Shown here: positions 1 through 12,009 of the stretch, piece after piece
Numbering within the stretch: position 1 is the stretch's first letter
Layout of the letters: each line of letters begins with the position of its first letter
Assembly: GCA_002898395.1 (NCBI GenBank)
Contig: BEHE01000030.1
Span: forward strand, 1 to 12,009
Source: Candidatus Calditenuaceae archaeon HR02
GTDB lineage: Archaea > Thermoproteota > Nitrososphaeria_A > Caldarchaeales > Calditenuaceae
Direction of reading: 5' to 3'
DNA length: 12,009 nucleotides
The notes under the pieces: model-generated
Database searches by the model: none
Seen by the model: the letters and a program-made list of their open reading frames with translations, nothing else
Told to the model about the DNA's origin: nothing
Translations under genes and position numbers: made by a program

Positions 1-111
1 CTCGAATTTTTCCCCAATCGCCAGTAGCTCATCCTCTAGGTCGAGGACGCTCAGCTGGCAGCCGTCGCATGACGCAAACTTGTAGACAGCTATCTTGGGC
101 TTCCGCCTCAT
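1..111 (-). CDS. hydD: Group 3b [NiFe]-hydrogenase small (delta) subunit, N-terminal part; continues beyond the left edge
   Basis: Not in the ORF track. Manual translation from ATG 111: MRRKPKIAVYKFASCDGCQLSVLDLEDELLAIGEKFE, containing the proximal Fe-S CxxC motif (SCDGC). ATGA overlap with the gamma stop at 108-110. Confidence 0.92.
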   Translation of the reverse strand, partial: MRRKPKIAVYKFASCDGCQLSVLDLEDELLAIGEKFE

Positions 112-962
112 ATCTCCCTCCTCCCGAAGAGATGCGACACCTCCGAGTAGCTGAAGACGGGGCCGTCTTTGCAGACGAAGTATGGGCCGAACTGGCAGTG
201 TCCGCACAAGCCTACACCACATCTCATGTTACGCTCCATGGAGATGAATATCCTGTCGTCGGAGAGCCCCTGTTTCCTCAACTCAGCTATCGTGAACCTC
301 ATCATTATCTCGGGGCCGCAGACGTATGCGTAGGTGTTTTCAGGGTCGAGTGTAACGTATTTGAACAGCGTCGTGACGACGCCGATGTATCCTCTCCATT
401 TTTCATCACCCTTGTCAACCGTTATGAGCAGCTGTGTGTCCAGCCTCTTCTTCCATGCCTGCAGCTCTTTTTTGTAGACCAGTTCGGCGGGGCTGCGGGC
501 ACCGTAGAGGATGTAGAGTTTCCCAATTTTTTCACGTTTTCTGAGAAAGTGTCTGATTAGGGGTCGGAGTGGTGCAAGCCCGATGCCTCCGGCGACAACC
601 ACCACATCGCGGCCTTCAGCCTCTTTCAGAGGCCAGCCGTTTCCGAAGGGGCCTCTCATGCCCACAGTGTCTCCCGGCTGAGCGGACGCTAATGCACGTG
701 TGACTCCTCCAACCGCCCTCACCGTGTGTTCAACCTGTTTACCGTTGTCCGAGTCTCCGCTGAATGAGATGGGGGCTTCGCCCACGCCGTAGCGGTAAAG
801 CATGCTGAACTGGCCCGGGCTATAGTTTACAGAGCCGTTGAGCGGCTTTATCTTAAGCGTGTAGGTGTCAGGCGTCTCTCTTCTCCTCGACACAACACGG
901 CACCACTTGAATGTGAAAGTGTCAAGCCCTTCCTCGAGCTGAATCTTCTGCTCGGCGATCAC
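108..962 (-). CDS. hydG: Group 3b hydrogenase gamma subunit (FAD/NAD(P)-binding, [2Fe-2S])
   Basis: FNR-like motifs RGPFGNGW, GGIGLAP and CGPEIMM; C-terminal CGVGLCGHC...VCKDGP cluster motif. GTG start overlaps the upstream TGA (GTGA 959-962). Confidence 0.93.
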   Translation of the reverse strand: MIAEQKIQLEEGLDTFTFKWCRVVSRRRETPDTYTLKIKPLNGSVNYSPGQFSMLYRYGVGEAPISFSGDSDNGKQVEHTVRAVGGVTRALASAQPGDTVGMRGPFGNGWPLKEAEGRDVVVVAGGIGLAPLRPLIRHFLRKREKIGKLYILYGARSPAELVYKKELQAWKKRLDTQLLITVDKGDEKWRGYIGVVTTLFKYVTLDPENTYAYVCGPEIMMRFTIAELRKQGLSDDRIFISMERNMRCGVGLCGHCQFGPYFVCKDGPVFSYSEVSHLFGRREI

Positions 963-1447
963 GCCTCAACCTCCTCCGCCTTGCCGTAGACGTCTAATAG
1001 ACGCATCCTCGCCGCCCTCAGCCTATCGGCGACAACCGTCACTATTCTCCGGTAAACCTCGGAGCCGAAAACAGGGTCGTCCCCCATCATCCGTAGAAGC
1101 TTCTCACTATCGACGGCTATTGCCAACGTGTTTTCCACAGTCACGGCGCCCGATGTTTTCTTGAAGGGTTCTACGAGTGATGACCATCCGAGGACCTCTC
1201 CGCTGCCTATTGTCTCGAACCTGAACTCGCCTTTCGTAGGGATGTGGAAATAGAGGGCTACCAGCCCGTAGACGATGAGATAGAGCCGTTTATGCACCTC
1301 GCCTTCCTCGAAAATCTTTTGACCTGCGGAAAACCTGACGAGCGTGGAGATTGAAGCGAGCTGCATGACCTTTTCCTCGGACATGTTCTTGGTGAAGGGG
1401 TGGTCTCTCAAAAGTGTCAAAAGCTCAACCTTCTGGCCGCTCATCAT
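959..1447 (-). CDS. Stand-alone cyclic-nucleotide-binding-fold (Crp/Fnr N-terminal) protein, 162 aa, no HTH
   Basis: HPFTKNMSEE...FSAGQKIFEEGE...LYLIVYGLVAL...IGSGEVLGW pattern. Start reassigned to ATG 1447 (ATGA overlap with the beta stop); the ORF-track start at 1537 lies inside the beta gene. Confidence 0.85.
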   Translation of the reverse strand: MMSGQKVELLTLLRDHPFTKNMSEEKVMQLASISTLVRFSAGQKIFEEGEVHKRLYLIVYGLVALYFHIPTKGEFRFETIGSGEVLGWSSLVEPFKKTSGAVTVENTLAIAVDSEKLLRMMGDDPVFGSEVYRRIVTVVADRLRAARMRLLDVYGKAEEVEA

Positions 1448-2571
1448 GTACCAGCCTCCACAGCCCTCTGCCTGATTTTGGCCGCTTCCTCGGCTATGTC
1501 TATGCCGACGGGACACCATGTGATGCATCTGCCGCATCCCACGCAGCCCAGCATCCCGAACTGGTCAACCCAAGTCGAAAGCTTATGTGTAATCCACTGC
1601 CTGTATCGGCTGAGCCTGCTCGCCCTAATCGGCCCCCCATGGATATAACTAAAGTCAGCGTTGAAGCACGAGTCCCATCTTCTCCACCGCTCAGCCTTCT
1701 CCCCCGAGAGGGGGGTCACCTCCTCGGTTGTTGTGCAGAAGCATGTTGGGCACACAAGTGTGCAGTTGCCGCATGCGAGACACCTTTCCGCAACCTCTGC
1801 GTAGACAGGGCTCTCTAGATTGTTGTAGAGAGCTTCTCTACATCCATTAGCTTCAAACTTTTTCCTGAAAAGCGTGCGACTCCTCTCCATGAGCGACGCG
1901 GCTTTCACCAACTCCTCCTCAGACGCCTTCCGGGCGCCAACCTGCTCGAGAAACTTCTGCCCATCGTTTGAACCGGGCCTAGCCACAAAATAGTGGACAC
2001 CATCCTCCAAAACCTCTGTAACGGCTATGTCAAACCCCGAGGAAGCCTCCGGCCCCGTCCCCATCGAAGAGCAGAAACAGTTCTCACCCGGCTCAGTGCA
2101 GTTGACCGCGACTATGAAGAGGTTTTTTCTCCTCACGGCGTAAATAGGGTCCACGTAGGGGCCGCCGAGTAGCACCTTGTCGAGAACACTTATGGCAGCC
2201 AGCTCGCAGCCCCGGACACCTATGAAAGCCATCTTCGGACTGTCCGTGTTGTGGGGCTTCACCTCTCCTTTACGAGTAACCGTGAGCAGCCTAACCCGAG
2301 CCGGGTAAAGAATTTTCTTCCACGAATGGGGCCCCACCACGTAGCCGAAAACTGCTTCATCACCCCTCTTCTCTAGCCTATAATAGCCCGGGCCCTGCCT
2401 ATCCCTCACCCCAACGGGAAACTGCGAAACTGAGTCAACCTCGTCATAGACTATCGCGTCATCCCGAACCCTCGGCCCAAAAACCGTATATCCCATACCG
2501 TGCAGAATCCGTATCAATCCGTCTAACTCTTGGGGCCCAATCACATAATAATCCACATTCCCAAAACTCAT
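1444..2571 (-). CDS. hydB: Group 3b hydrogenase beta subunit (4Fe-4S protein)
   Basis: CFCSSMG, CLACGNCTLVCPTCFC, RWDSCF, RYRQWITHKL and GCVGCGRCITWCPVGID motifs. GGGGGAG just upstream of the ATG. Confidence 0.93.
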   Translation of the reverse strand: MSFGNVDYYVIGPQELDGLIRILHGMGYTVFGPRVRDDAIVYDEVDSVSQFPVGVRDRQGPGYYRLEKRGDEAVFGYVVGPHSWKKILYPARVRLLTVTRKGEVKPHNTDSPKMAFIGVRGCELAAISVLDKVLLGGPYVDPIYAVRRKNLFIVAVNCTEPGENCFCSSMGTGPEASSGFDIAVTEVLEDGVHYFVARPGSNDGQKFLEQVGARKASEEELVKAASLMERSRTLFRKKFEANGCREALYNNLESPVYAEVAERCLACGNCTLVCPTCFCTTTEEVTPLSGEKAERWRRWDSCFNADFSYIHGGPIRASRLSRYRQWITHKLSTWVDQFGMLGCVGCGRCITWCPVGIDIAEEAAKIRQRAVEAGT

Positions 2572-2604
2572 GGCTCCCCCATATCCATACTACGCAGGCA
2601 TCTC

Positions 2605-2619
2605 ATTTAAGTTTGTCTC
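2605..2619 (-). promoter_or_regulatory. Possible BRE/TATA promoter for the hydrogenase structural operon
   Basis: Minus strand reads GAGACAAAC-TTAAAT about 35 nt upstream of the beta ATG, in the only intergenic gap (59 nt) of this block. Confidence 0.4.
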
Positions 2620-2630
2620 ACCACAGTGAT

Positions 2631-3404
2631 TTAAACAACCTTCAAACCAGCCTTTCTAAGCTTCTCTCTCAGAGACCGTGCGAAAACGGTGGACAACAAC
2701 TTTTCTGGACCCTTTTTTCCTCCCCCTACCATGATTTCGGCGTCAAAGGGGATGGCGCCCAAAGACTCTACACCAGCTTCAGCGGCCAGACGCCTCGATA
2801 GGCTGTCATCCTCTCCCCTGGACATATTCTCCACCACCCCAATTATTCTGTAGTTCATCGAGCCGAGAATCTCGATGACGCGTCTGGCCACGCTGATGGA
2901 GAGAGGAGAAGAAGTAGTGACTACGATGGCGCCGCCTACCTGCTTCGTCAGCCGTGTGATGGTTAACAGCTCGTCACCCGTCCCCGGTGGCGTGTCCACC
3001 ACAAGGTAGTCAAGCCGGCCAAAGCTGGTGAGAGCCATCATCTCCTTCACAACCTCCTCCTTCGCTCCACCGGTCAAAGGCAGAGGCCTCCCTTTCGCAA
3101 ACAAATCAACCGACATAACCTTCACCCCACCGACAGACGGAGGAATCAAGCCATCCTCCGCCTCCATTGGAGACTCGTCTACACCGAGTAGAAGACATGC
3201 CGAGGGCCCGTTCAAGTCAAGGTCGAGAAGCCCGGTCCTGTTACTGGATTGGGAGAGTATGAGAGCCGCCGTCGAAGCAATAGTGCTTTTTCCAACGCCA
3301 CCCTTACCGCCGGTGACGAGCAAAACATACGAAAATTCGCTTAAACGTTTCATGATCAAGGCATCTCGGTAATCTATACAGCCGTCTCTAGACATAGACG
3401 ACAT
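2631..3404 (-). CDS. hypB: Mrp/MinD-family ATPase, probably ATPase-type HypB (hydrogenase nickel insertion); start may be 3395
   Basis: Deviant Walker A GGKGGVGKS, DLDLNGPS, VVDTPPGTGDE and VENMS. Lacks the CxxC that follows ENMS in Mrp/Nbp35 Fe-S carriers. Overlaps hypA, as for the Thermococcus kodakarensis HypA/HypB pair. Confidence 0.75.
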   Translation of the reverse strand: MSSMSRDGCIDYRDALIMKRLSEFSYVLLVTGGKGGVGKSTIASTAALILSQSSNRTGLLDLDLNGPSACLLLGVDESPMEAEDGLIPPSVGGVKVMSVDLFAKGRPLPLTGGAKEEVVKEMMALTSFGRLDYLVVDTPPGTGDELLTITRLTKQVGGAIVVTTSSPLSISVARRVIEILGSMNYRIIGVVENMSRGEDDSLSRRLAAEAGVESLGAIPFDAEIMVGGGKKGPEKLLSTVFARSLREKLRKAGLKVV

Positions 3405-3789
3405 CCCGTATGCTCACCCCCCTACCCGACTCTATCCGCAAGTCCTTGCTGCCGCATATCCTACATGCCCCATAAGATGCAATCAGCTCGGGAAGAAAAT
3501 GTATCACCTCCTTCTCCTGGTCATCAAGGTCTTCAACAACTTCGCCAAAAGACATCACATAGCCACAGGACCCACATATCACACGGGCCCGCTCAACCTC
3601 AACCGAGAAAACCGCATCCGCGGCGTCGCTGTGTTTGATAAGCTTCTCCAAAGCTCCCCTCAGCACTTCAAGGTTCAACATGCTTAGCTCCCCGACGAAA
3701 ACTCTAAAACTCTTCACACGCCTCCCAGAGCTTTTGGAAAAATTTTTCAACGAGTCGACAACCCCCACCGCTATAGTGTATTCGTGCAT
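3388..3789 (-). CDS. hypA: Hydrogenase maturation nickel metallochaperone HypA (133 aa)
   Basis: The N-terminal MHE nickel motif fixes the start at 3789 rather than 3840. VGELS, two CxxC (CGSC, CRIC) separated by a long insert with HFLPE, and SGRGV. Confidence 0.93.
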   Translation of the reverse strand: MHEYTIAVGVVDSLKNFSKSSGRRVKSFRVFVGELSMLNLEVLRGALEKLIKHSDAADAVFSVEVERARVICGSCGYVMSFGEVVEDLDDQEKEVIHFLPELIASYGACRICGSKDLRIESGRGVSIRDVVYV

Positions 3790-3980
3790 GTGCCTTAGCA
3801 TGTTAGGCCCATCCATAACCTTAACTCCAGCCACAAGCACCCCGGCTTAGGAGTTGCACTGCTTTACCGGAGTAGGGTAAAGGCTTTCATCAACGTAACG
3901 CAATAGCCACGCATGTCCATGACTCTTCCGATGTGTGGGATGGTGTTGAGATTTTACGTATGGGCTATGTCTTAGTCTGT

Positions 3981-3993
3981 TAAAATATAAATA
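3981..3993 (+). promoter_or_regulatory. Archaeal TATA box for the heme-copper operon (probably leaderless mRNA)
   Basis: A-rich run followed by TATAAATA at 3986-3993, ending 24 nt before ATG 4018. No Shine-Dalgarno sequence before that ATG. Confidence 0.7.
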
Positions 3994-4017
3994 TTAGCCT
4001 AGACATATATTTCCACT

Positions 4018-4545
4018 ATGTGGTGGACGGGTCTCGGAGCCCTCCTACTTATGATATATTTGACCACTCCCTTCCTAGTGGCCTTCCTCCTCATCTTCTA
4101 CCTATCCATCCGTAGGGGCGGTAGGCCGGCTGCTGAGGGAGGAGGACGTGCTTGGGAGGTTCTGTGGATACTCTTGGTGGGTGGGGTTTGGGTGGTGATA
4201 AACCTGACCAGCATAGGCTGGATACCCTCAGGCCTGGGCGGTGCGGACAGGGGTGTGGAGCCAACACAGAGAATAACCGTAGAGGCTCACATGTGGTACT
4301 TCAAGCTTGACGCTGACAGGCTTGCACCCTACACCCCCACCGAGATAGTGGCGAAGAGCTACGATACGATGCATGGCGTCGGCATATACGACCCAGAGGG
4401 GCGGCTGGTCGCGACGATGATGCTCATGCCCGGGATGGGGGAGAGGCTGGTCCTCACACTGCAGCCGGGAGAATACATCATACGCTGCCTCGAATACTGC
4501 GGCGACGGACACGCCGCAATGGTTTCACGCTTTACCGTGGGGTGA
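4018..4545 (+). CDS. Heme-copper oxidoreductase subunit II with a CuA site
   Basis: Two N-terminal hydrophobic helices, AHMWYF, DTMH119G, and a complete C157-x-E-x-C161-G-x-G-H165-x-x-M168 CuA motif. Confidence 0.92.
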   Translation: MWWTGLGALLLMIYLTTPFLVAFLLIFYLSIRRGGRPAAEGGGRAWEVLWILLVGGVWVVINLTSIGWIPSGLGGADRGVEPTQRITVEAHMWYFKLDADRLAPYTPTEIVAKSYDTMHGVGIYDPEGRLVATMMLMPGMGERLVLTLQPGEYIIRCLEYCGDGHAAMVSRFTVG

Positions 4546-4551
4546 GATGAA

Positions 4552-6030
4552 TTGACAGTAACCGAGACTGTTAAGACCTCGCTTTCCGACATAGTCAACA
4601 TCCCCAAACTGATGTTCTACACATCCATCCTATGGTTCCTCCTTGGAGGAGGCGCAGGCCTCTACATGGTGTTGTCGCACCTATCGGGGGCCACCTATGT
4701 CGCAAACTACTACCAGGCTATGACGCTCCACGGTGTTGTCATGGCCTTCGGCGGGCTCTTCCAGCTTATGATGGCTCTCTCACTGATGAGGGCTGGATTC
4801 TGCTATGGAAAGCCTGTGAAAGGCTTTGTGGCCTCAGCCTCCTACCTCCTGCTCAACCTAGGTCTTCTAATGGCGGTGGTGGCCACCTGGCTGGGTGTGA
4901 GGACGAGCTACACGCTGATGTTCCCCCTCCCCGCCGTGGGAGCGCTCCATGGTCTATGGACGTTAGACGCTGTAACACTTTTCGTATGGGGTGTGGTCCT
5001 CGTTGTGGCGGTGGTGGTAGCCCTTTACCCATCGGCACTAGCGAGGCTCATATTCTTCGGAAAGACAAGAGAGGCCCTGATACTTGAGAGGTTCGTGGGT
5101 ACGCTCAACCCATCCGGCATGGCCAGCATGCTCCCATACATCTTCATAGTACCTGTACTGGGCTCGGCAATACTCCTAGAAGCAGCCCTTATAGGGATGG
5201 CCCTCATCAACCTAGTCCCACTAGACGAGATAGCATGGATACTCCACCCCCTGAACTTCAACTACCCCTTCTGGGTCTGGGCCCACAACCTGATGGAGGC
5301 CATGGGCATCATGGGCCTGGGTACGGTTTACTGGCTTATCCCCAGATACACAGCTAGGATGGAGAGAGCCGAGGACGCTGCACCCAGACTCTACAGCGAG
5401 AAGCTCGGCATATTCGCGATAATCTTCTACGCATCCGCCGCTGTCATGGCCTTCCCCCACCACCTCTACACCATGCCCACATCACAGCCCATAGGGCTCA
5501 GCTACACAGGCCAGATAGCCAGCTGGCTGACCGGCTTCGGAGCCGCATTCTCAGTCTTTAACATCTCCGCCACAGCTTACAGGAAAGGGCTCCGGCTCAC
5601 ACCGGCAACACTCGCGGCAATGCTAGGCTTCACCATATACGTGGTCGACGGCTTCATCGCCATGCAGCTGGGGACAATCGGATGGGCCTACAGACTCCAT
5701 GGAACATACTATGCGACAGCGCATCTCATGACAATTCTGTTGGCGGTGACGCTTATCTGGATAGGCGCGGCATACCACAGCCACAGCCTCCTAACAGGGC
5801 GAACACCATCCAACAGACTCGCATACACACATATACTGCTCACAGCCTTAGGCGCTCTGGGGATATTCTACATCATGGCATACATGGGTGCTGAGGGCTT
5901 CCCCAGAAGAACATATCCACTGCCCTTCTACTCAGACCCACCAATGGCAGGCATCCTCGTATTCGGCCTCCTCCTAGCAATCGGCCAGGCAGCCTTCCTC
6001 CTCAACCTCATCAAAGCTAAGTCCAAATGA
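4552..6030 (+). CDS. Heme-copper superfamily subunit I, probable nitric oxide reductase (nNOR-like)
   Basis: About 12 hydrophobic helices; H60 (MTLHG), FWVWAH245NLME249, PH303H304, HGTYYATAH391LM393 and GFPRR. TTG start preceded by GGGGTGA. Superfamily membership is very clear; the NOR function is inferred. Confidence 0.8.
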   Translation: MTVTETVKTSLSDIVNIPKLMFYTSILWFLLGGGAGLYMVLSHLSGATYVANYYQAMTLHGVVMAFGGLFQLMMALSLMRAGFCYGKPVKGFVASASYLLLNLGLLMAVVATWLGVRTSYTLMFPLPAVGALHGLWTLDAVTLFVWGVVLVVAVVVALYPSALARLIFFGKTREALILERFVGTLNPSGMASMLPYIFIVPVLGSAILLEAALIGMALINLVPLDEIAWILHPLNFNYPFWVWAHNLMEAMGIMGLGTVYWLIPRYTARMERAEDAAPRLYSEKLGIFAIIFYASAAVMAFPHHLYTMPTSQPIGLSYTGQIASWLTGFGAAFSVFNISATAYRKGLRLTPATLAAMLGFTIYVVDGFIAMQLGTIGWAYRLHGTYYATAHLMTILLAVTLIWIGAAYHSHSLLTGRTPSNRLAYTHILLTALGALGIFYIMAYMGAEGFPRRTYPLPFYSDPPMAGILVFGLLLAIGQAAFLLNLIKAKSK

Positions 6031-6056
6031 AATATTGTAGATAGAGCCCGTGTGAG

Positions 6057-6497
6057 GTGATGGATTTGGCTAGTAGAGCTGTTTTGATTGTTGTCGTGGC
6101 CGTGGTTGTAGTAGCGATTGTAGGCGCCGTTTTCGCGACTGGGATGCTGGGTGGGGGTTCGCAGCAGAGGCAGACCAAGGTTGTGAAGATAGTTAGCAAC
6201 AAAGACTCCTACCTTGCTCCTAAGGAGTGGAAGATGGGTGACCCCCCGGTCATCAGCGACAGGTACTACAACCCGAGTAGGGTAACGATAAACGTCGGCG
6301 ACACCGTCGAATACGTCAACCAAGACTCAGTCGCCCACACCTTCACCACGATGAAGGGCAAGGCCCCGGAACAGTTCGACTCGGGCCTAGTAGGCCCGGG
6401 CAAGTCTTGGAGATACACGGTCAAGACAGCAGGCGAATACAACATATACTGCACCGCCCACCCCCACAAAGGAGTAGTGATAACAGTCCAACCATGA
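6057..6497 (+). CDS. Membrane-anchored cupredoxin (amicyanin/plastocyanin-like)
   Basis: N-terminal hydrophobic helix; YNPSRVTINVGDTVEYVNQDSVAH94, FDSG and GEYNIYC132TAH135PHK. The exact start (GTG 6057, ATG 6060 or TTG 6066) is uncertain. Confidence 0.88.
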   Translation: MMDLASRAVLIVVVAVVVVAIVGAVFATGMLGGGSQQRQTKVVKIVSNKDSYLAPKEWKMGDPPVISDRYYNPSRVTINVGDTVEYVNQDSVAHTFTTMKGKAPEQFDSGLVGPGKSWRYTVKTAGEYNIYCTAHPHKGVVITVQP

Positions 6498-7030: not shown

Positions 7031-7272
7031 ATGAAGGCTTCCCCCAGATTTAAGACATATTGTTTAGGATAATCACAGTCTTTCAACATATCGTCATCAT
7101 CGGTTATTTTTATCAATATCGCTTTTAATCCCAGTTTCTCCAATTCCGATAGTTTATTGAGTTTCATTCTTATTTCTTCCAACCGCGAAACATTAAACAA
7201 CAGCGAATACCCACATGTTGCCGTAACATTACCCAGCAAATCCACGGATACCTCTTCAACACATATATACAT
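7003..7272 (-). CDS. Hypothetical protein or gene fragment in an AT-rich patch
   Basis: 89-aa ORF with protein-like composition (LEEIRMKLNKLSELEKLGLKAILIKITDDDD). Its last codons run out of frame into the CARF remnant. No recognised family. Confidence 0.3.
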   Translation of the reverse strand: MYICVEEVSVDLLGNVTATCGYSLLFNVSRLEEIRMKLNKLSELEKLGLKAILIKITDDDDMLKDCDYPKQYVLNLGEAFIMSTRFTYV

Positions 7273-7289
7273 CCAAATAGGCTGAAAGA

Positions 7290-7623
7290 GAAATAGGCTA
7301 CAGCCAGCTTGTTGACATAGTGCACTGTGACCAAGTGTTTCTTACCAACAACGCCCTTCTAAAACCGTTTACGTAGCCGACGACAAAGACAAATTAGAAA
7401 AAGAGAACTCTTTCACAACAGACCTTCAACACCTCGCTTACAAGTTCCCTGATGCACCAGCCGTATCCAAGAAACAGAAAAGCACACCATCAATAAAGAT
7501 CTTAAAGCCAAAGATGTTATCAAAAAACATTCACCTTCACTGTTCATGCTCTGCAAGGACATAGTTGGTTTCATGATTTCGGAGGAGGAATATAGAAATG
7601 AAGCCTATGGCGTCTCCTCATGA
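7290..7623 (+). pseudogene. Probable degraded 3' end of a cas3' helicase gene
   Basis: Protein-like fragments in three successive frames (EIGYSQLVDIV...; TVYVADDKDKLEKENSFTTDL...; KDVIKKHSPSLFMLCKDIVGFMISEEEYRNEAYGVSS*). The last ends at TGA 7621-7623, overlapping the cas3'' start as cas3' commonly does in type I-A loci. Identity inferred mainly from position. Confidence 0.4.
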
Positions 7624-8317
7624 AACTTTGGAAGACCATCTCATATCCTGCTTCCAATTTTTGAAAAGCCACTTTATTGACAGAGACTACGCTGCCCATG
7701 TGGCCTACTGCTTCCGAATTGATGAGGCGGAGGCTGTGAAGGCATTGAAGACGGCGGTGATCTTCCATGACTATGGCAAGGCGGCTAACGAATACCAGAA
7801 GAAAGAGTCCAAGAAACTCAGTTTTCCAAAACACGAATACTTCTCAGCCTCTGCGGCGCACAAATCTATCAAAGAAACTGTTTGGCGGGACGAATGCTTA
7901 ATGGCTATTGGATGGCATCACATGGCTATGAGGGGCCCGAGCCTCTTAGACGACTTTACGACATGGAAAAAGTTTGGCGCACCCGAGAAAGCCACGTTCC
8001 CGGCAGAGTTTGTTGAAACCTTTCGCAAAATTGCAAAGGATAATGAATTGGGGGATATGCTTGTTAATGACCCGCCTCATGAAATAACCCTGCCCGAAGT
8101 CAGAAAGACGCTAGAACACATATCAGCTAGACTCTTGAGCCTCCAGACAGGACATACATTCTACCGCCTCACACTCAAGCTCTTACGTCCCCTTCTGATT
8201 GTGGATAACCTGGCCGCAGCGGAGAAGCGAGATGGAGTTGAGAAAATTTTTGTAAAAGATTTGCCCGACCCGGCGGAAATTCACCAGATAAGGGATGTGT
8301 TGCGAGGCCTGTGCTAA
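7598..8317 (+). CDS. cas3'': CRISPR-associated HD nuclease Cas3'' (type I-A split Cas3)
   Basis: ETLEDHL, IFHDYGKA...YQ, KHEYFSA, IGWHH and LIVDNLAA motifs all present. GGAGGAGG at 7581-7588. Confidence 0.9.
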   Translation: MKPMASPHETLEDHLISCFQFLKSHFIDRDYAAHVAYCFRIDEAEAVKALKTAVIFHDYGKAANEYQKKESKKLSFPKHEYFSASAAHKSIKETVWRDECLMAIGWHHMAMRGPSLLDDFTTWKKFGAPEKATFPAEFVETFRKIAKDNELGDMLVNDPPHEITLPEVRKTLEHISARLLSLQTGHTFYRLTLKLLRPLLIVDNLAAAEKRDGVEKIFVKDLPDPAEIHQIRDVLRGLC

Positions 8318-10617
8318 ACTGTTTCCACAACTTTTCCCTCATGTAGTCTTATTATATGGTTTACGTGTTCTTCGAGGCCGCCTACGTGGCTTATGATGAA
8401 TATTTGACTAAATTTTTTGGTGAGGTCAAGGGCTATGTATACGATGATGCCTGACCTTCTTACTTCATCGGAGCTTCCCAGCGGCTCGTCGAGGAATACG
8501 AACTCGGGTTTCTGGCCCTTGGCTTCGGGGAGAAGAGCCAATGCGAAGGCAAGCCTCATTGCGAGGAGCATCTGGTCCTCTGTGCCGCCTGAGAAAACCT
8601 CCTTGACCCTGTACTGGCCTGCGTCGGGGTCCCAGACCTGCAGCCGATAGTCGTCGTCGAGGATTGCGGCTTTGTATCGGTTGTTTGTGAGAGCCGGTAG
8701 AATGATTCCCATGTGTGCTGCGACAAGTGGTTTAACCCTGTTTCTTAGCGCCTCGGCTGTGGCCTGTACGGCTTCAACCGCTTTCCTGACGACTGCCAGC
8801 TCACGCTCCAGATTTGCGACAACATTCATCTGTTCGCTGTATCTCTGCTCCACGTCGCCGTGGGCCCTTAGCCACTCATCCAGCTCCAAAACCTGCTGCG
8901 ACAACAACTCAGCCCTCGTCCTATAAGCCTGAATGTTTTCTGCGAGCTGCTGAACCCTTCTCCTCGTCTCCTCCAGCACATCTCTGCTAAACTCCAGCCC
9001 CGGAGGCAGCGTGGGCAACCTTATACCCTCTAGCTGTTCCCGGAGACTGTGTATCTCGTCCTCGACTTGGTTGAGCTCATGCTCCGCTGGCAGGTTTTTG
9101 AGCTGCTCCCTGTAAGCGTCAAGCCTCGACTTGAGATTGTTGAGTTCTTGACGGTCTTTCACCGCCTGCTGCAACACGGCTTCGACAGCTTTTGGCAGTC
9201 CTTCTCCGAGTTTTTGCCGGAATAGCTCGCCATATCTTGGCAGGGATGAGAAGGCGTTTTTCAGATACGAGGTTTTTACGCTGTGGTTTTGAACAAGGTT
9301 TCCCAGTGTGGCCCTTGCAGTGGCATGCATTTCCCTAGCTTGCTCGAGTCGGGCGAGTGTTTCCTGAAGAACCATCATTCGAGAAAGTCTCGAAACCCGT
9401 TGAAACACGATGATTAGAAAAACCACTCCAGCAGCAACTAATAGGAGTGCTGGAAGAACGCCGCCGAGAAACAGGAGGACGAATGCTATGATGATGCTTG
9501 CTGCGGCTCCAGATGCAAATGGACGGATAGACGGTCTCCGTAACGCTGTTGCTTTAGCCGACGGCGGCAACTGCTGCTCCAAGCTCCTAACCTGTAAGCC
9601 TAGCCGCGTCTCAGCTTCACGCACCTCATCAATCTGATAATCAAGATTCCTCAGCTGCTGATACTCTTTCGACAACGATTCCAGCTCTTTTTCGACGAGA
9701 GGCAGGTCCCGGTAACGCTGTAAATCGTTCTCCATGTGTTCTATATTCTGTAGCAGTGTTTCTCTCGTTTTCCGAAGCGTTTCCAGGTGTTTTCGTTTCG
9801 TCTCTATCTCGAGCTCCAGCTTTTGCCGCCGATTGAGAAATTCATCGTAGTCCTGAAGTGTCTTATACAGTTTCTCCGCTTCCGCATATTCGGCCTCTGT
9901 TTTCTCGATGTTTTTGAGCAACTTCATTCTTTCCTCGACCAGGTCTTCGCGTTCTTTCTTCTTTTTCACGTATTCTTCCAGCTCCTTACGCAGGGATTCC
10001 AGTTTTTCTTTTTCGACCCGCAGACTGCCCGGCCTCTCCTTAGTGCCCTCCAACTCTCTTTTCTGCTCTTCAAGATTTTCCAGAACGATGTTGAAGCTTT
10101 CGAGGTTGAGGAAGACGTTGATTATCTTTTTTCGGTCCTCTTGCCGGAGCTCGATCAGCTTGTTCAGCTCCTTCTGGGCGACGACTGTGCTGGACACTAG
10201 TTCGTTGAAGGTTATTCCTCCGAGTATTGCTTCCACCTGCTCGGTTACTTTCTCCTGTCCTACGGCCAAGGGTTTGAGGGAATTGTCTGCAAGGATTTCG
10301 TCAAGATTGGCGTGAGGCTTTCCTTTTCTGCTTATTTCTCTTCTTACCCTGTAGCGTTTATCGCCGACGGCGAACTCGAGGACGACATGGGCTTTGCTGG
10401 CGCCATATGCGATGATGTCCTCGTTTCTTGTTTTACCTTTTTCCGGCGGCGGCCTGATTACTCTGGCGTAGAGGGCGTAGAGTATTGCGTCGAGGATGGA
10501 GGATTTTCCGGCTTCGTTGAGGCCTGATATCAGCATCACGCCATCTGAGAACCTTAACGGCTCATCGAACTTCAGTTTCTTGAAGTTGTAGGCGTAGAGG
10601 CTTAGCAGCTTTACCAT
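8314..10617 (-). CDS. rad50: Rad50/SbcC-like SMC-family ATPase with a central hydrophobic hairpin and no zinc hook
   Basis: Walker A GLNEAGKS, Q-loop VAQ, long coiled coils, signature FSGG, Walker B/D-loop FLDEPLGSSD and H-loop IISH. Start overlaps the mre11 stop. Confidence 0.9.
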   Translation of the reverse strand: MVKLLSLYAYNFKKLKFDEPLRFSDGVMLISGLNEAGKSSILDAILYALYARVIRPPPEKGKTRNEDIIAYGASKAHVVLEFAVGDKRYRVRREISRKGKPHANLDEILADNSLKPLAVGQEKVTEQVEAILGGITFNELVSSTVVAQKELNKLIELRQEDRKKIINVFLNLESFNIVLENLEEQKRELEGTKERPGSLRVEKEKLESLRKELEEYVKKKKEREDLVEERMKLLKNIEKTEAEYAEAEKLYKTLQDYDEFLNRRQKLELEIETKRKHLETLRKTRETLLQNIEHMENDLQRYRDLPLVEKELESLSKEYQQLRNLDYQIDEVREAETRLGLQVRSLEQQLPPSAKATALRRPSIRPFASGAAASIIIAFVLLFLGGVLPALLLVAAGVVFLIIVFQRVSRLSRMMVLQETLARLEQAREMHATARATLGNLVQNHSVKTSYLKNAFSSLPRYGELFRQKLGEGLPKAVEAVLQQAVKDRQELNNLKSRLDAYREQLKNLPAEHELNQVEDEIHSLREQLEGIRLPTLPPGLEFSRDVLEETRRRVQQLAENIQAYRTRAELLSQQVLELDEWLRAHGDVEQRYSEQMNVVANLERELAVVRKAVEAVQATAEALRNRVKPLVAAHMGIILPALTNNRYKAAILDDDYRLQVWDPDAGQYRVKEVFSGGTEDQMLLAMRLAFALALLPEAKGQKPEFVFLDEPLGSSDEVRRSGIIVYIALDLTKKFSQIFIISHVGGLEEHVNHIIRLHEGKVVETV

Positions 10618-11762
10618 GCGCCCGCCGCCTCAAGCATTCCCTCGCTCCGTCTAAGCGCCTCCGCCAAAATCTCCCGCTCCTCAGCCGACGCATTCTGCAT
10701 CAAGGTACTAAAGTAGCGACGCAGCTCCTCCAAGGGAGTGGTTTTCTCCAGTATGCTCGGTTTTTCAGTTGACTTGATCTCGAGACCGCTCTCGTCAACC
10801 ATGAGGTGGAATAGGCGGGTTTGGGCGTGAAGGAGGAGTTCTGATCTTCTGTATTCGGTTAGTTTTTCGGCTTCGACGACTCCTTTGATGACAAGACGTA
10901 GGACAAGCTGTGGGTCGGCATGTTGGTCTATCAGCTGCTTGAGCCGCTCTATTGCATCTTTTTCAGGGAACATGGTTTCTATGGTTTTGTAGGGACGGGC
11001 CTGTGTCTTGACGTGGTCAAGTGAGACAAGGCCTTCCCTGTTTAGCTCTGTCCAGACAAAGCCTTTAGGCTCCTCTTCCTCCGCGAAAGAGACTCTCTCT
11101 GTGCTACCGGGGTAAACTATCGCCGTGTCGCCGAGACGTTTGACTTGGTGTCGATGCAGGTGGCCGACTGCCACGAGTTGATAGGTTCTTGGAATAGAGC
11201 TCAGCCTAACCACCGGTTCTTCGCCATAGACGCCGACAAACCCTTCCACGGGATAGTGTAGCAAAAGAATGTTGACGTCGCCCCGTTTTTCAACCTTGAT
11301 AGAGGATAGCGGGTCGTCTGCCGGATGTAACAACGGGTTATGGCCAAGGCCCGCCATAACAACCTCGTAACCATCCACTTCAAGAGAAAAATAGACCACG
11401 CTGCTTGGGTCCTGGATAAAGTATGCGTATCCGGAGTGACCGTAGACAGCCAGCGGTGAAACGCCTTCTTCGACGCTTTTGGGTGTGTCGTGATGGCCGC
11501 TCACCATCACCACCTTAACACCTCTTTCATGCAGCTGCTTCATGTGCTGCATAAGACGCGCCCTGACAAAGTTGCTGGGCTTCACCGTGTCGAAAATGTC
11601 TCCAGCCATCAGCAAAAGGTCTGGTTTCTCTCTCTTAGCATGTTCCATAACCTCCTCGAAGCAGCGGAGATGGTCCCGTTTTCTCTCAAACCGTTTGGCG
11701 CCGAACATGGTTGCAGGCGGGTCGAGATGATTATCCGCTGTAATGATGACCTGCACGCTCAT
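10611..11762 (-). CDS. mre11: Mre11/SbcD-family nuclease
   Basis: Metallophosphoesterase motifs ADNHLD, GDIFD, GHHD, LLH, GHLH and YPGSTERVSFAE. Start reassigned to ATG 11762 (GAGGAG upstream, directly after the herA stop). Confidence 0.92.
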   Translation of the reverse strand: MSVQVIITADNHLDPPATMFGAKRFERKRDHLRCFEEVMEHAKREKPDLLLMAGDIFDTVKPSNFVRARLMQHMKQLHERGVKVVMVSGHHDTPKSVEEGVSPLAVYGHSGYAYFIQDPSSVVYFSLEVDGYEVVMAGLGHNPLLHPADDPLSSIKVEKRGDVNILLLHYPVEGFVGVYGEEPVVRLSSIPRTYQLVAVGHLHRHQVKRLGDTAIVYPGSTERVSFAEEEEPKGFVWTELNREGLVSLDHVKTQARPYKTIETMFPEKDAIERLKQLIDQHADPQLVLRLVIKGVVEAEKLTEYRRSELLLHAQTRLFHLMVDESGLEIKSTEKPSILEKTTPLEELRRYFSTLMQNASAEEREILAEALRRSEGMLEAAGAW

Positions 11763-11763
11763 T

Positions 11764-12009
11764 TCAGGTCTCCTCAAACTCGCCTTTGAAAGGCTTTCTC
11801 CGCTTTTCATCTTCTTCGGCTCTTTTATCGTTTCTCACAAGGTTGAGGGCCTCCCTTAGCTTGGACACAACATCGATGTCGGCGCCGCCCTCCATCGTGG
11901 TTCTGGGCCTCACCTTCATCATCACAGGCACCTTGGTCACCTCACCCACCACCACCGCCTCGCCCTGGTTGAGGCTTGGTAGATCGTTTAACAGGTCTTG
12001 GCTCATTCT
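11764..12009 (-). CDS. herA: HerA helicase/translocase, C-terminal part; begins beyond the right edge
   Basis: DLLNDLPSLNQGEAVVVG...PVMMKVRPR...GGAD resembles the HerA C-terminus, and the gene lies directly upstream of mre11-rad50. Confidence 0.82.
   Translation of the reverse strand, partial: RMSQDLLNDLPSLNQGEAVVVGEVTKVPVMMKVRPRTTMEGGADIDVVSKLREALNLVRNDKRAEEDEKRRKPFKGEFEET

Follow-up and report, generated by a model that had tools for sequence, protein, structure and literature searches.

The rad50-like gene and its product

The window analysed here is a stretch of 12,009 nucleotides (nt), contig BEHE01000030.1 of the assembly GCA_002898395.1 of Candidatus Calditenuaceae archaeon HR02 (contig C30 of genome bin G000). 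Its right-hand part carries, on the minus strand, the cut 3' end of a herA gene, an mre11-type nuclease gene and a rad50-like gene. The last of these occupies 8314..10617; the plus-strand frame over the same interval is riddled with stops. Its product, P0001, was assigned from profile, PDB and AlphaFold2 (AF2)/Foldseek matches as a rad50-like SMC/ABC ATPase of 767 amino acids (aa). P0001 contains 0 cysteines and for that reason has no CxxC zinc hook. The missing cysteines had been pointed out in an earlier reading of the window made without database searches (hereafter the sequence-only reading), and the count agrees with it.

P0001 was matched by Pfam AAA_23 (E 2.5e-17) and SMC_N, and by AAA_27 at 22.0 bits, the cut-off being 22. 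NCBIfam Rad50 models were matched below their equivalog cut-offs, the top match being Rad50 PRK03918 (122.9 bits, cut-off 700). By sequence, P0001 matched Rad50 heads in the PDB with E 8e-19. The residues of Walker A, Q-loop, signature, Walker B and H-loop were invariant across the 64 aligned members of alignment A1. Walker A (GLNEAGKS, residues 32-39) lies at 10501..10524 on the minus strand and has G32, G37 and K38 invariant. The ABC signature region (VFSGGTEDQML, residues 674-684; 8566..8598, minus) has S676, G677, G678, D681 and Q682 invariant, Walker B (FVFLDEP, residues 706-712; 8482..8502, minus) has D710 and E711, and the H-loop has H744 (8386-8388, minus).

The AF2 model of P0001, computed with 64 aligned homologues, had a mean predicted local distance difference test (pLDDT) score of 84.4. 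It consists of an ascending coiled-coil arm, a helix at residues 365-383, an L-G-G turn and a helix at 387-457 that runs into the descending arm. When this model was searched with Foldseek, Rad50 structures ranked first. P0001 thus has a complete split ABC head of Rad50/SbcC type, Q-loop, D-loop and H-loop included, and a long antiparallel coiled coil. Two properties of Rad50 in the strict sense are missing from it, the CxxC hook at the apex and an NCBIfam score above the equivalog cut-off.

The hydrophobic apex

Residues 367-405 of P0001 (nt 9403-9519; FASGAAAS...LIIVF) form a run of 39 uncharged residues at the exact midpoint of the protein. Two of the 39 are polar, both serine. The 19-residue Kyte-Doolittle mean peaks at 3.05, for the segment starting at residue 387. 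Predicted membrane helix 1 spans residues 365-383 (9469..9525, minus strand), as judged from the AF2 helix and hydrophobicity. It is followed in the model by the L-G-G turn, residues 384-386 (9460..9468, minus), and by predicted membrane helix 2, residues 387-405 (9403..9459, minus), which is continuous with the descending coiled-coil helix 387-457. P389 begins this second helix. On the N-terminal side the hairpin is flanked by the basic segment ALRRPSIRP (residues 358-366; 9520..9546, minus) and on the C-terminal side by QRVSRLSRM (residues 406-414; 9376..9402, minus). The sequence-only reading had placed an uncharged stretch at residues ~367-405 near the coiled-coil midpoint, with arginines on either side and a turn containing GG and Pro. 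The coordinates of the stretch matched exactly, both flanks were read as described, and the turn and proline are present in the AF2 model.

The same features were followed through 134 family members. The longest uncharged run had a median length of 42 aa (range 20-49) and lay at a relative position of 0.50. The 12 residues upstream were net positive in 120 of 134 members and the downstream flank in 100 of 134. Of the 57 alignment rows whose uncharged run reaches 35 aa or more, 41 hold P or G in the central 10 residues. In the family alignment, residue identity in the segment is poorly conserved and hydrophobicity is retained. Two helices of ~19-20 residues, a short turn and positive flanks, as found in P0001, are the sequence features of an integral membrane helical hairpin.

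Conservation of the hairpin and absence of the hook

The central hydrophobic segment was present in all 119 listed homologues of P0001 (37-89% identity). None of the 119 has an apex CxxC; a CxxC occurs in a single one, far from the apex. Where these proteins are named, their labels are Ca. Caldarchaeum, Bathyarchaeia or Nitrososphaeria. A Thermofilum-type query returned 65 strong matches (P0126-P0190), all centrally hydrophobic and without CxxC, including proteins of 985-1243 aa that carry AAA_27, two of them labelled bacterial. Its weaker matches (P0191-P0242) were of the other kind, with a central CxxC and no hydrophobic segment in 49 of 52. A library of 1.84 billion representatives gave 274 matches at E ≤ 1e-30, and the best 150 of these contributed 136 new representatives. 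A hydrophobic centre was found in 122, a central CxxC in 0 and neither feature in 14, eight of which are fragments shorter than 400 aa.

Viral sequences served as a control only. Forty-seven distant relatives were found on viral contigs and 40 were examined; the remaining 7 were omitted because they shared match coordinates with listed ones. The 40 Rad50/SbcC-like ORFs (open reading frames) included 31 with a central CxxC, 9 with neither feature and none with a hydrophobic apex. The segment is likewise missing from the hook-type relatives among the weaker Thermofilum-query matches, and the longest uncharged run in the soluble Rad50 paralogue P0124 is 12 aa. All family members examined have the segment at one and the same relative position, and it is therefore not a product of chance. 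The retention of a hydrophobic hairpin without CxxC in close and distant homologues agrees with the conservation that the sequence-only reading had made a check of its proposal.

The Pfam model Rad50_zn_hook gave nothing over its cut-off in G000; among 14 control genomes the model passed its cut-off in just 3, and its sensitivity is therefore low. NCBIfam holds no YhaN-specific model, and eight long relatives matched only its Rad50/SbcC models, below the cut-offs. A single-protein scan of genome contigs yielded one distant Micrarchaeota locus, which was not used.

Head-domain tree

A tree was built from the first 175 and last 185 residues only, with a quick IQ-TREE run under LG+G4, and was left unrooted. 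As it contains head residues alone, the apex cannot drive it. Candidates shorter than 640 aa or without Walker A within the first 80 residues were excluded. The 87 rows comprised P0001, 31 hand-picked short hairpin members, 22 long members (every third), 4 long members without a clear segment, 25 hook-type matches (every second), 3 hook-bearing proteins of Thermofilaceae and P0124. All 58 hairpin-clade rows share one side of a branch with a Shimodaira-Hasegawa-like approximate likelihood ratio test (SH-aLRT) value of 98, with the hook-bearing Rad50s opposite. The long AAA_27-bearing proteins, including the two labelled bacterial, fall in the clade of P0001; AAA_27 is the YhaN-type domain. The ESM Atlas clusters nearest in features were AAA_23/AAA_27 clusters from Thermoproteota, Chloroflexota, Dictyoglomota, Bacillota and others. 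The hairpin architecture marks a large clade that is coherent in the head-only tree. A head phylogeny had been proposed beforehand as a means of placing the protein, and in it P0001 groups with hookless AAA_27 proteins of hydrophobic apex, apart from hook-bearing Rad50.

Operon, Mre11 partner and distribution

The mre11-type gene lies at 10611..11810 on the minus strand and overlaps the rad50 start by 7 nt. Its product P0002 is 399 aa as called, with M17 the likelier start, and was matched by Pfam Metallophos (E 2e-13) and Mre11_Sulfo (94 bits). The motifs DNH26-28, GDIFD70-74 and GHLH216-219 are present. Phosphoesterase motif III (residues 104-108) reads S-G-H-H-D; the usual form of this motif is G-N-H-D/E. 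The herA 3' end (11764..12009, minus; HerA models, E 6e-9) comprises 81 codons. Of the operon, only this herA end, mre11 and rad50 are visible in the window because the contig ends there. All 81 aa of the HerA fragment (100%) are identical to the matching part of a 495-aa HerA in genome G024. This genome consists of one contig and belongs to the same order under another family code. The intact G024 locus consists of nurA (477 aa), herA (495), mre11 (399) and rad50 (767), followed by convergent genes for a cas3'' HD nuclease (239) and a cas3' helicase (537). The herA-mre11 context noted in the sequence-only reading therefore extends, in this near-identical locus, to a full nurA-herA-mre11-rad50 operon.

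All 22 hairpin-type rad50 loci counted have mre11 immediately upstream; herA also adjoins in 18 of them and nurA in 15, and the cluster of four genes is complete in 15 of the 22. Beyond these genes, no family recurred across lineages beside the operon in these loci. Locus L050 (G296) was kept outside the neighbourhood counts; it had been called on the opposite strand, and its rad50 ORF was seen as L027.

Of 401 genomes sampled from the phylum, 27 had a match at E ≤ 1e-30, made up of 25 full or contig-cut genes and 2 fragments. All ORFs recovered from the sample were centrally hydrophobic and without CxxC. Group f28, identified as Thermofilaceae by the names of near-identical proteins (Thermofilum adornatum, T. 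pendens, Infirmifilum), was positive for hairpin-type rad50 in 10 of 12 genomes. Each of five complete Thermofilaceae genomes has one Mre11-model match, inside this operon. Across the sample, 23 of 25 carriers have a single Mre11 match, 22 of these consistent with the gene beside the hairpin rad50; match positions were shown only for the five complete genomes. In G077 the single match lies on a different contig from the hairpin rad50, and its score resembles that of the soluble type. Two Mre11 matches each were obtained in G000 and G024. In Thermofilaceae, and in several further families, the hairpin type appears to be the only Rad50 linked to Mre11.

Two further features were seen in Thermofilaceae. 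Five genomes (L069-L073; G174, G113, G227, G120, G250) contain an orphan gene for an SMC-like protein of ~791-824 aa whose central CxxC is of the CPVCG type; this gene is not beside mre11, herA or nurA. A gene for a 1-Cys peroxiredoxin (AhpC/TSA) stands just upstream of nurA in five loci (L057:3048-3707; L060-L063), a synteny limited to this family.

Comparison with known relatives

The SbcE protein (YhaN) of Bacillus subtilis is described as a hookless SMC-like protein nearest to SbcC/Rad50, with a hydrophobic central domain and a conserved proline (PMC2811018). Neither SbcE nor its central domain was soluble at all when over-expressed in Escherichia coli, and sbcE lies beside the gene of an SbcD/Mre11-like nuclease, SbcF (YhaO). 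The protein acts in double-strand break repair and in transformation, sbcE mutants transform less, and in competent cells SbcE accumulates at the poles, provided comK is present (PMC2811018). In the part of this 2009 description considered here the domain is called hydrophobic and insoluble and the term transmembrane is absent. The YhaN/SbcE resemblance claimed in the sequence-only reading agrees with this account. P0001 shares with SbcE the lack of CxxC, the hydrophobic centre with a proline in the turn region and the SbcD-like neighbour. P0001 and many of its homologues also match AAA_27, and the longer AAA_27 members stand in the same head-tree clade. P0001 differs from SbcE, as described, in size (767 aa against 106 kDa) and in its HerA-NurA partner, which is not described for B. 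subtilis in the part of PMC2811018 considered.

The archaeal Rad50 of the herA-mre11-rad50-nurA operon, for example that of Pyrococcus furiosus (PDB 3qku/3qkt/1ii8), has the same ABC head motifs, antiparallel coiled coil, adjacent mre11 and HerA and NurA. Unlike it, P0001 has no CxxC hook and its apex is the 39-residue hydrophobic hairpin; it is also ~100 aa shorter than the Rad50 models of ~880 positions and lies across the branch of SH-aLRT 98. E. coli SbcCD is likewise a nuclease-ATPase pair of Mre11-Rad50 type, and P0001 was matched by the sbcc model (E 6.8e-16) and by the fold of 7yzp. SbcC differs in having a hook CxxC (PMC2811018), and in lacking a membrane segment and HerA-NurA.

In databases these proteins are named 'AAA family ATPase', 'SMC family ATPase' or 'exonuclease SbcC', and the Thermofilum adornatum member 'DNA double-strand break repair Rad50 ATPase'. 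A search of the paper library for Rad50/SbcC that is transmembrane or anchored in the membrane turned up no account of the archaeal form.

Proposed mechanism

P0001 is taken, with moderate confidence, to be a Rad50-type ATPase that works in an Mre11-Rad50 complex anchored in the membrane and probably related to bacterial SbcE/YhaN, an assignment made from sequence. The proposal of the sequence-only reading, a membrane-tethered Mre11-Rad50 working with HerA, is supported by the retention of the hairpin in homologues, the head-domain tree, the published features of SbcE and the operon. The two apex helices would insert in the membrane as a hairpin with both ends in the cytoplasm, because the two halves of the head require the cytoplasm. 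Insertion of the hairpin would fix the apex of the Mre11-Rad50 heterotetramer (M2R2) in the membrane. The ATPase/nuclease head would then hang ~20-25 nm into the cytoplasm, as estimated from arms of ~150 residues. The Rad50 apex is the point of dimerisation in known complexes. In a rod-shaped dimer the hairpins would lie side by side, and a four-helix membrane bundle could replace hook-mediated dimerisation at the apex. With HerA-NurA, the complex would detect and resect DNA ends like the hook-bearing system, but only near the envelope; the ends in question could stem from breaks in the chromosome or from incoming DNA.

The basic job of the complex is probably general end processing for recombination, as the hairpin type appears to be the sole Mre11 partner in several families. 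A specialisation for incoming DNA or defence is possible. Pointers to it are the presence of SbcE at competence poles (PMC2811018), the adjoining cas3 genes in one lineage and, in Pyrobaculum and Vulcanisaeta, Ted loci for DNA import that carry rad50 and herA (PMC9905601). The sequence-only reading had suggested action on incoming viral or plasmid DNA. This suggestion gains slight weight from the neighbouring cas3, confined to one lineage, and loses weight from the families in which the hairpin type is the only Mre11-linked Rad50.

Several observations weigh against a membrane-anchored Rad50. Insertion of the apex helices is itself read out of sequence features. When a simple sum on the Hessa scale was applied to the 123 members in which two windows could be placed, both 19-mers were at or below 0.5 kcal/mol in just 34; one of the two helices is marginally hydrophobic in many members. 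AF2 does not distinguish a membrane from a protein core, and the pLDDT dips at the apex, to 59-63 at residues 350-370 and 75-79 at 370-400. P0001 remains far below the NCBIfam Rad50 equivalog cut-offs (122.9 against 700), the head-only tree has no B. subtilis YhaN row, and no conserved gene for a membrane partner was found beside the operon in the clustered loci. SbcE-YFP (yellow fluorescent protein) foci were described as lying on the nucleoid and moving from pole to pole within a minute (PMC2811018), which would not readily be expected of an integral membrane protein.

Genomic context of the window and the defence alternative

The cas genes adjoin rad50 at its 3' end. The Cas3'' HD nuclease P0003 (239 aa; 7598..8317, plus strand) was matched by PADLOC Cas3 (83 bits) and TIGR01596 (E 8e-10). 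Its gene is convergent with rad50 and the 3' ends overlap by 4 nt, an arrangement also found in G024 and G021. A remnant of the Cas3' helicase, the C-terminal ~130 codons in shifted frames, was located by tblastn and blastn at 7281..7614 (plus). The block of homology between the window and G024 ends at ~7363, and cas3' is retained in G024 and G021. Given these remnants and the end of the homology block, the type I cas module is broken in the window. Cas3'' is treated as neighbourhood context and not as a demonstrated part of the Mre11-Rad50 machine.

Window positions 7363-12009 are 93.3% identical in DNA to G024. Positions 1-3840 are 92% identical to another part of G024 and 68-73% to genomes of the genus of G000. 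A region of G000 contig C9 shows the opposite pattern, with 85-89% identity to same-genus genomes and 66-71% to G024, and G000 itself has copies of the window's left-hand genes, at ~71%, on contigs C15 and C7. The tetranucleotide distance of contig C30 was the largest of 36 contigs, a measure that is noisy for small contigs and not decisive for binning. On the grounds of the G024-like identity, the opposite pattern on C9 and the own copies in G000, contig C30 is probably either mis-binned from a G024-like organism or the result of a very recent transfer. The left-hand part of the window (108-6497) carries genes for an NAD-binding/Fe-S oxidoreductase subunit, a cyclic-nucleotide-monophosphate (cNMP)-binding protein, a 4Fe-4S dicluster protein, a NUBPL/Mrp-type ATPase and HypA, then a 175-aa membrane ORF without a Pfam match, a COX1-type oxidase subunit and a cupredoxin. 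The oxidase block had no match in G024.

A second nurA-herA-mre11-rad50 operon was found in G024 (L079) and in the G000 bin on C9 (L013, C9:24000-42000, rad50 7062-9341). Its Rad50, of 759 aa in G000 and 758 aa in G024, groups in the tree with the hook type. It contains no CxxC at all and no hydrophobic segment, and is therefore hookless without a membrane segment. The search for a second, hook-bearing Rad50 that the sequence-only reading had suggested thus produced the second Rad50, also without a hook. The second operon lies on a segment of ~10.8 kb whose flanks adjoin each other in G002 and G006, which places it on an insertion or variable island. The operon copy in the window is an extra one, in a lineage that also holds a soluble Mre11-Rad50.

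The hairpin type was found in 6 of 41 relatives, two of these with fragments only, and the soluble type matched 19 of 41. The hairpin-type operon is repeatedly lost within the order. Remnants of the rad50 C-terminus were seen at G006:C4:42119-42700 (L017; 47% identical, 4 stops) and at G000:C19:23626-23898 (L002; 47% identical, 2 stops), the latter decayed and adjoining an ORF labelled by eye as DNA methyltransferase-like. In G021 (L018/L068) an 87% identical piece of 99 aa without an internal stop stands beside cas3''.

The window copy might be read as an accessory, mobile nurA-herA-mre11-rad50 cassette, linked to defence or CRISPR, whose task at the envelope is the degradation of linear DNA from invaders and not chromosomal repair. 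The abutting cas3''/cas3' genes in the window, G024 and G021, the patchy distribution with its interrupted or short copies in G006 and G021, the decayed G000 fragment beside the methyltransferase-like ORF and the soluble operon in the same lineage all fit such a cassette, as does a PADLOC LmuB match of 114.6 bits. These points are countered by the other lineages, where the cas genes are not neighbours and only the four operon genes recur, and by Thermofilaceae and most other carriers, where this is the sole Mre11-linked Rad50; the hairpin is also found in 0 of 40 viral relatives. The LmuB match is unspecific, since this model gives 124.3 bits for the soluble paralogue P0124, and neither an LmuA- nor an LmuC-type partner is present. 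A defence cassette is on balance rather unlikely.

Membership of the Lamassu system itself was considered and rejected. The LmuB match covers the whole of P0001 and Foldseek also matched LmuACB structures; P0001 differs in that LmuA/LmuC genes are not present and its partners are Mre11 with HerA-NurA. The PADLOC matches to LmuB, PbeC, JetC and DndD are attributed to generic SMC-head similarity, the soluble paralogue matching equally well or better, and were discarded as evidence for a defence role.

Alternative roles of the apex and of the complex

A second alternative keeps the complex in the cytoplasm. The apex would then be a greasy plug for dimerisation or oligomerisation, doing the job of the hook without zinc and perhaps touching the membrane peripherally. 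The position of the dimerisation point in known complexes, the marginal hydrophobicity of one of the two helices in many members and the highly mobile SbcE-YFP foci on nucleoids (PMC2811018) can be cited in its favour. A plug of this kind is nevertheless unlikely. A polar face is absent, with just 2 of 39 residues polar; the length is conserved at ~2 x 19-20 residues between positively charged flanks; hydrophobicity is kept at low sequence conservation, as is typical of lipid-facing helices. The complete insolubility of SbcE and its central domain in E. coli, reported in PMC2811018, points the same way.

Dedication of the complex to DNA that enters through an envelope import machine (competence-like or Ced/Ted-like), with strands trimmed or passed to recombination, is improbable: the transformation defect of sbcE mutants and the comK-dependent polar SbcE (PMC2811018) and the Ted loci with rad50 and herA (PMC9905601) speak for it, but VirB4-, CedA- or pilin-like genes were not recurrent beside the operon in the clustered loci, and the genes found apart from mre11 in Thermofilaceae are the orphan hook-bearing SMC-like ones and not of hairpin type.

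Significance

The zinc hook counts as a defining trait of Rad50, and what it does is still under debate. The hairpin clade is a large natural group in which the hook is exchanged for a membrane-type hairpin, and the head, the Mre11 partner and, in archaea, HerA-NurA are kept. On the reading of P0001 as part of a membrane-anchored complex, it is conceivable, and held here tentatively, that the apex of Rad50/SbcC-type machines exists in two designs of ancient origin, one being the zinc hook and the other a transmembrane hairpin, and that the Mre11-Rad50(-HerA-NurA) of the hairpin clade is an integral membrane complex. The clade takes in Thermofilaceae, which are in culture, some Caldarchaeales, many proteins with the label Bathyarchaeia and a large set of longer SbcE/YhaN-like proteins, some labelled bacterial. 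The hairpin may also account for the insoluble hydrophobic centre of SbcE and its gathering at competence poles.

The idea is directly testable, since the clade has cultured members (Thermofilum, Infirmifilum) and a likely bacterial relative, SbcE, in the genetically tractable B. subtilis. The clade is a natural experiment on what the Rad50 apex is for, whether dimerisation, anchoring or tethering; if the two designs are real, the universal requirement for a hook would really be a requirement for a fixed, dimerised apex. A membrane hairpin would put the processing of DNA ends at the membrane, and in organisms of the hairpin clade the onset of homologous recombination would be physically bound to the cell envelope.

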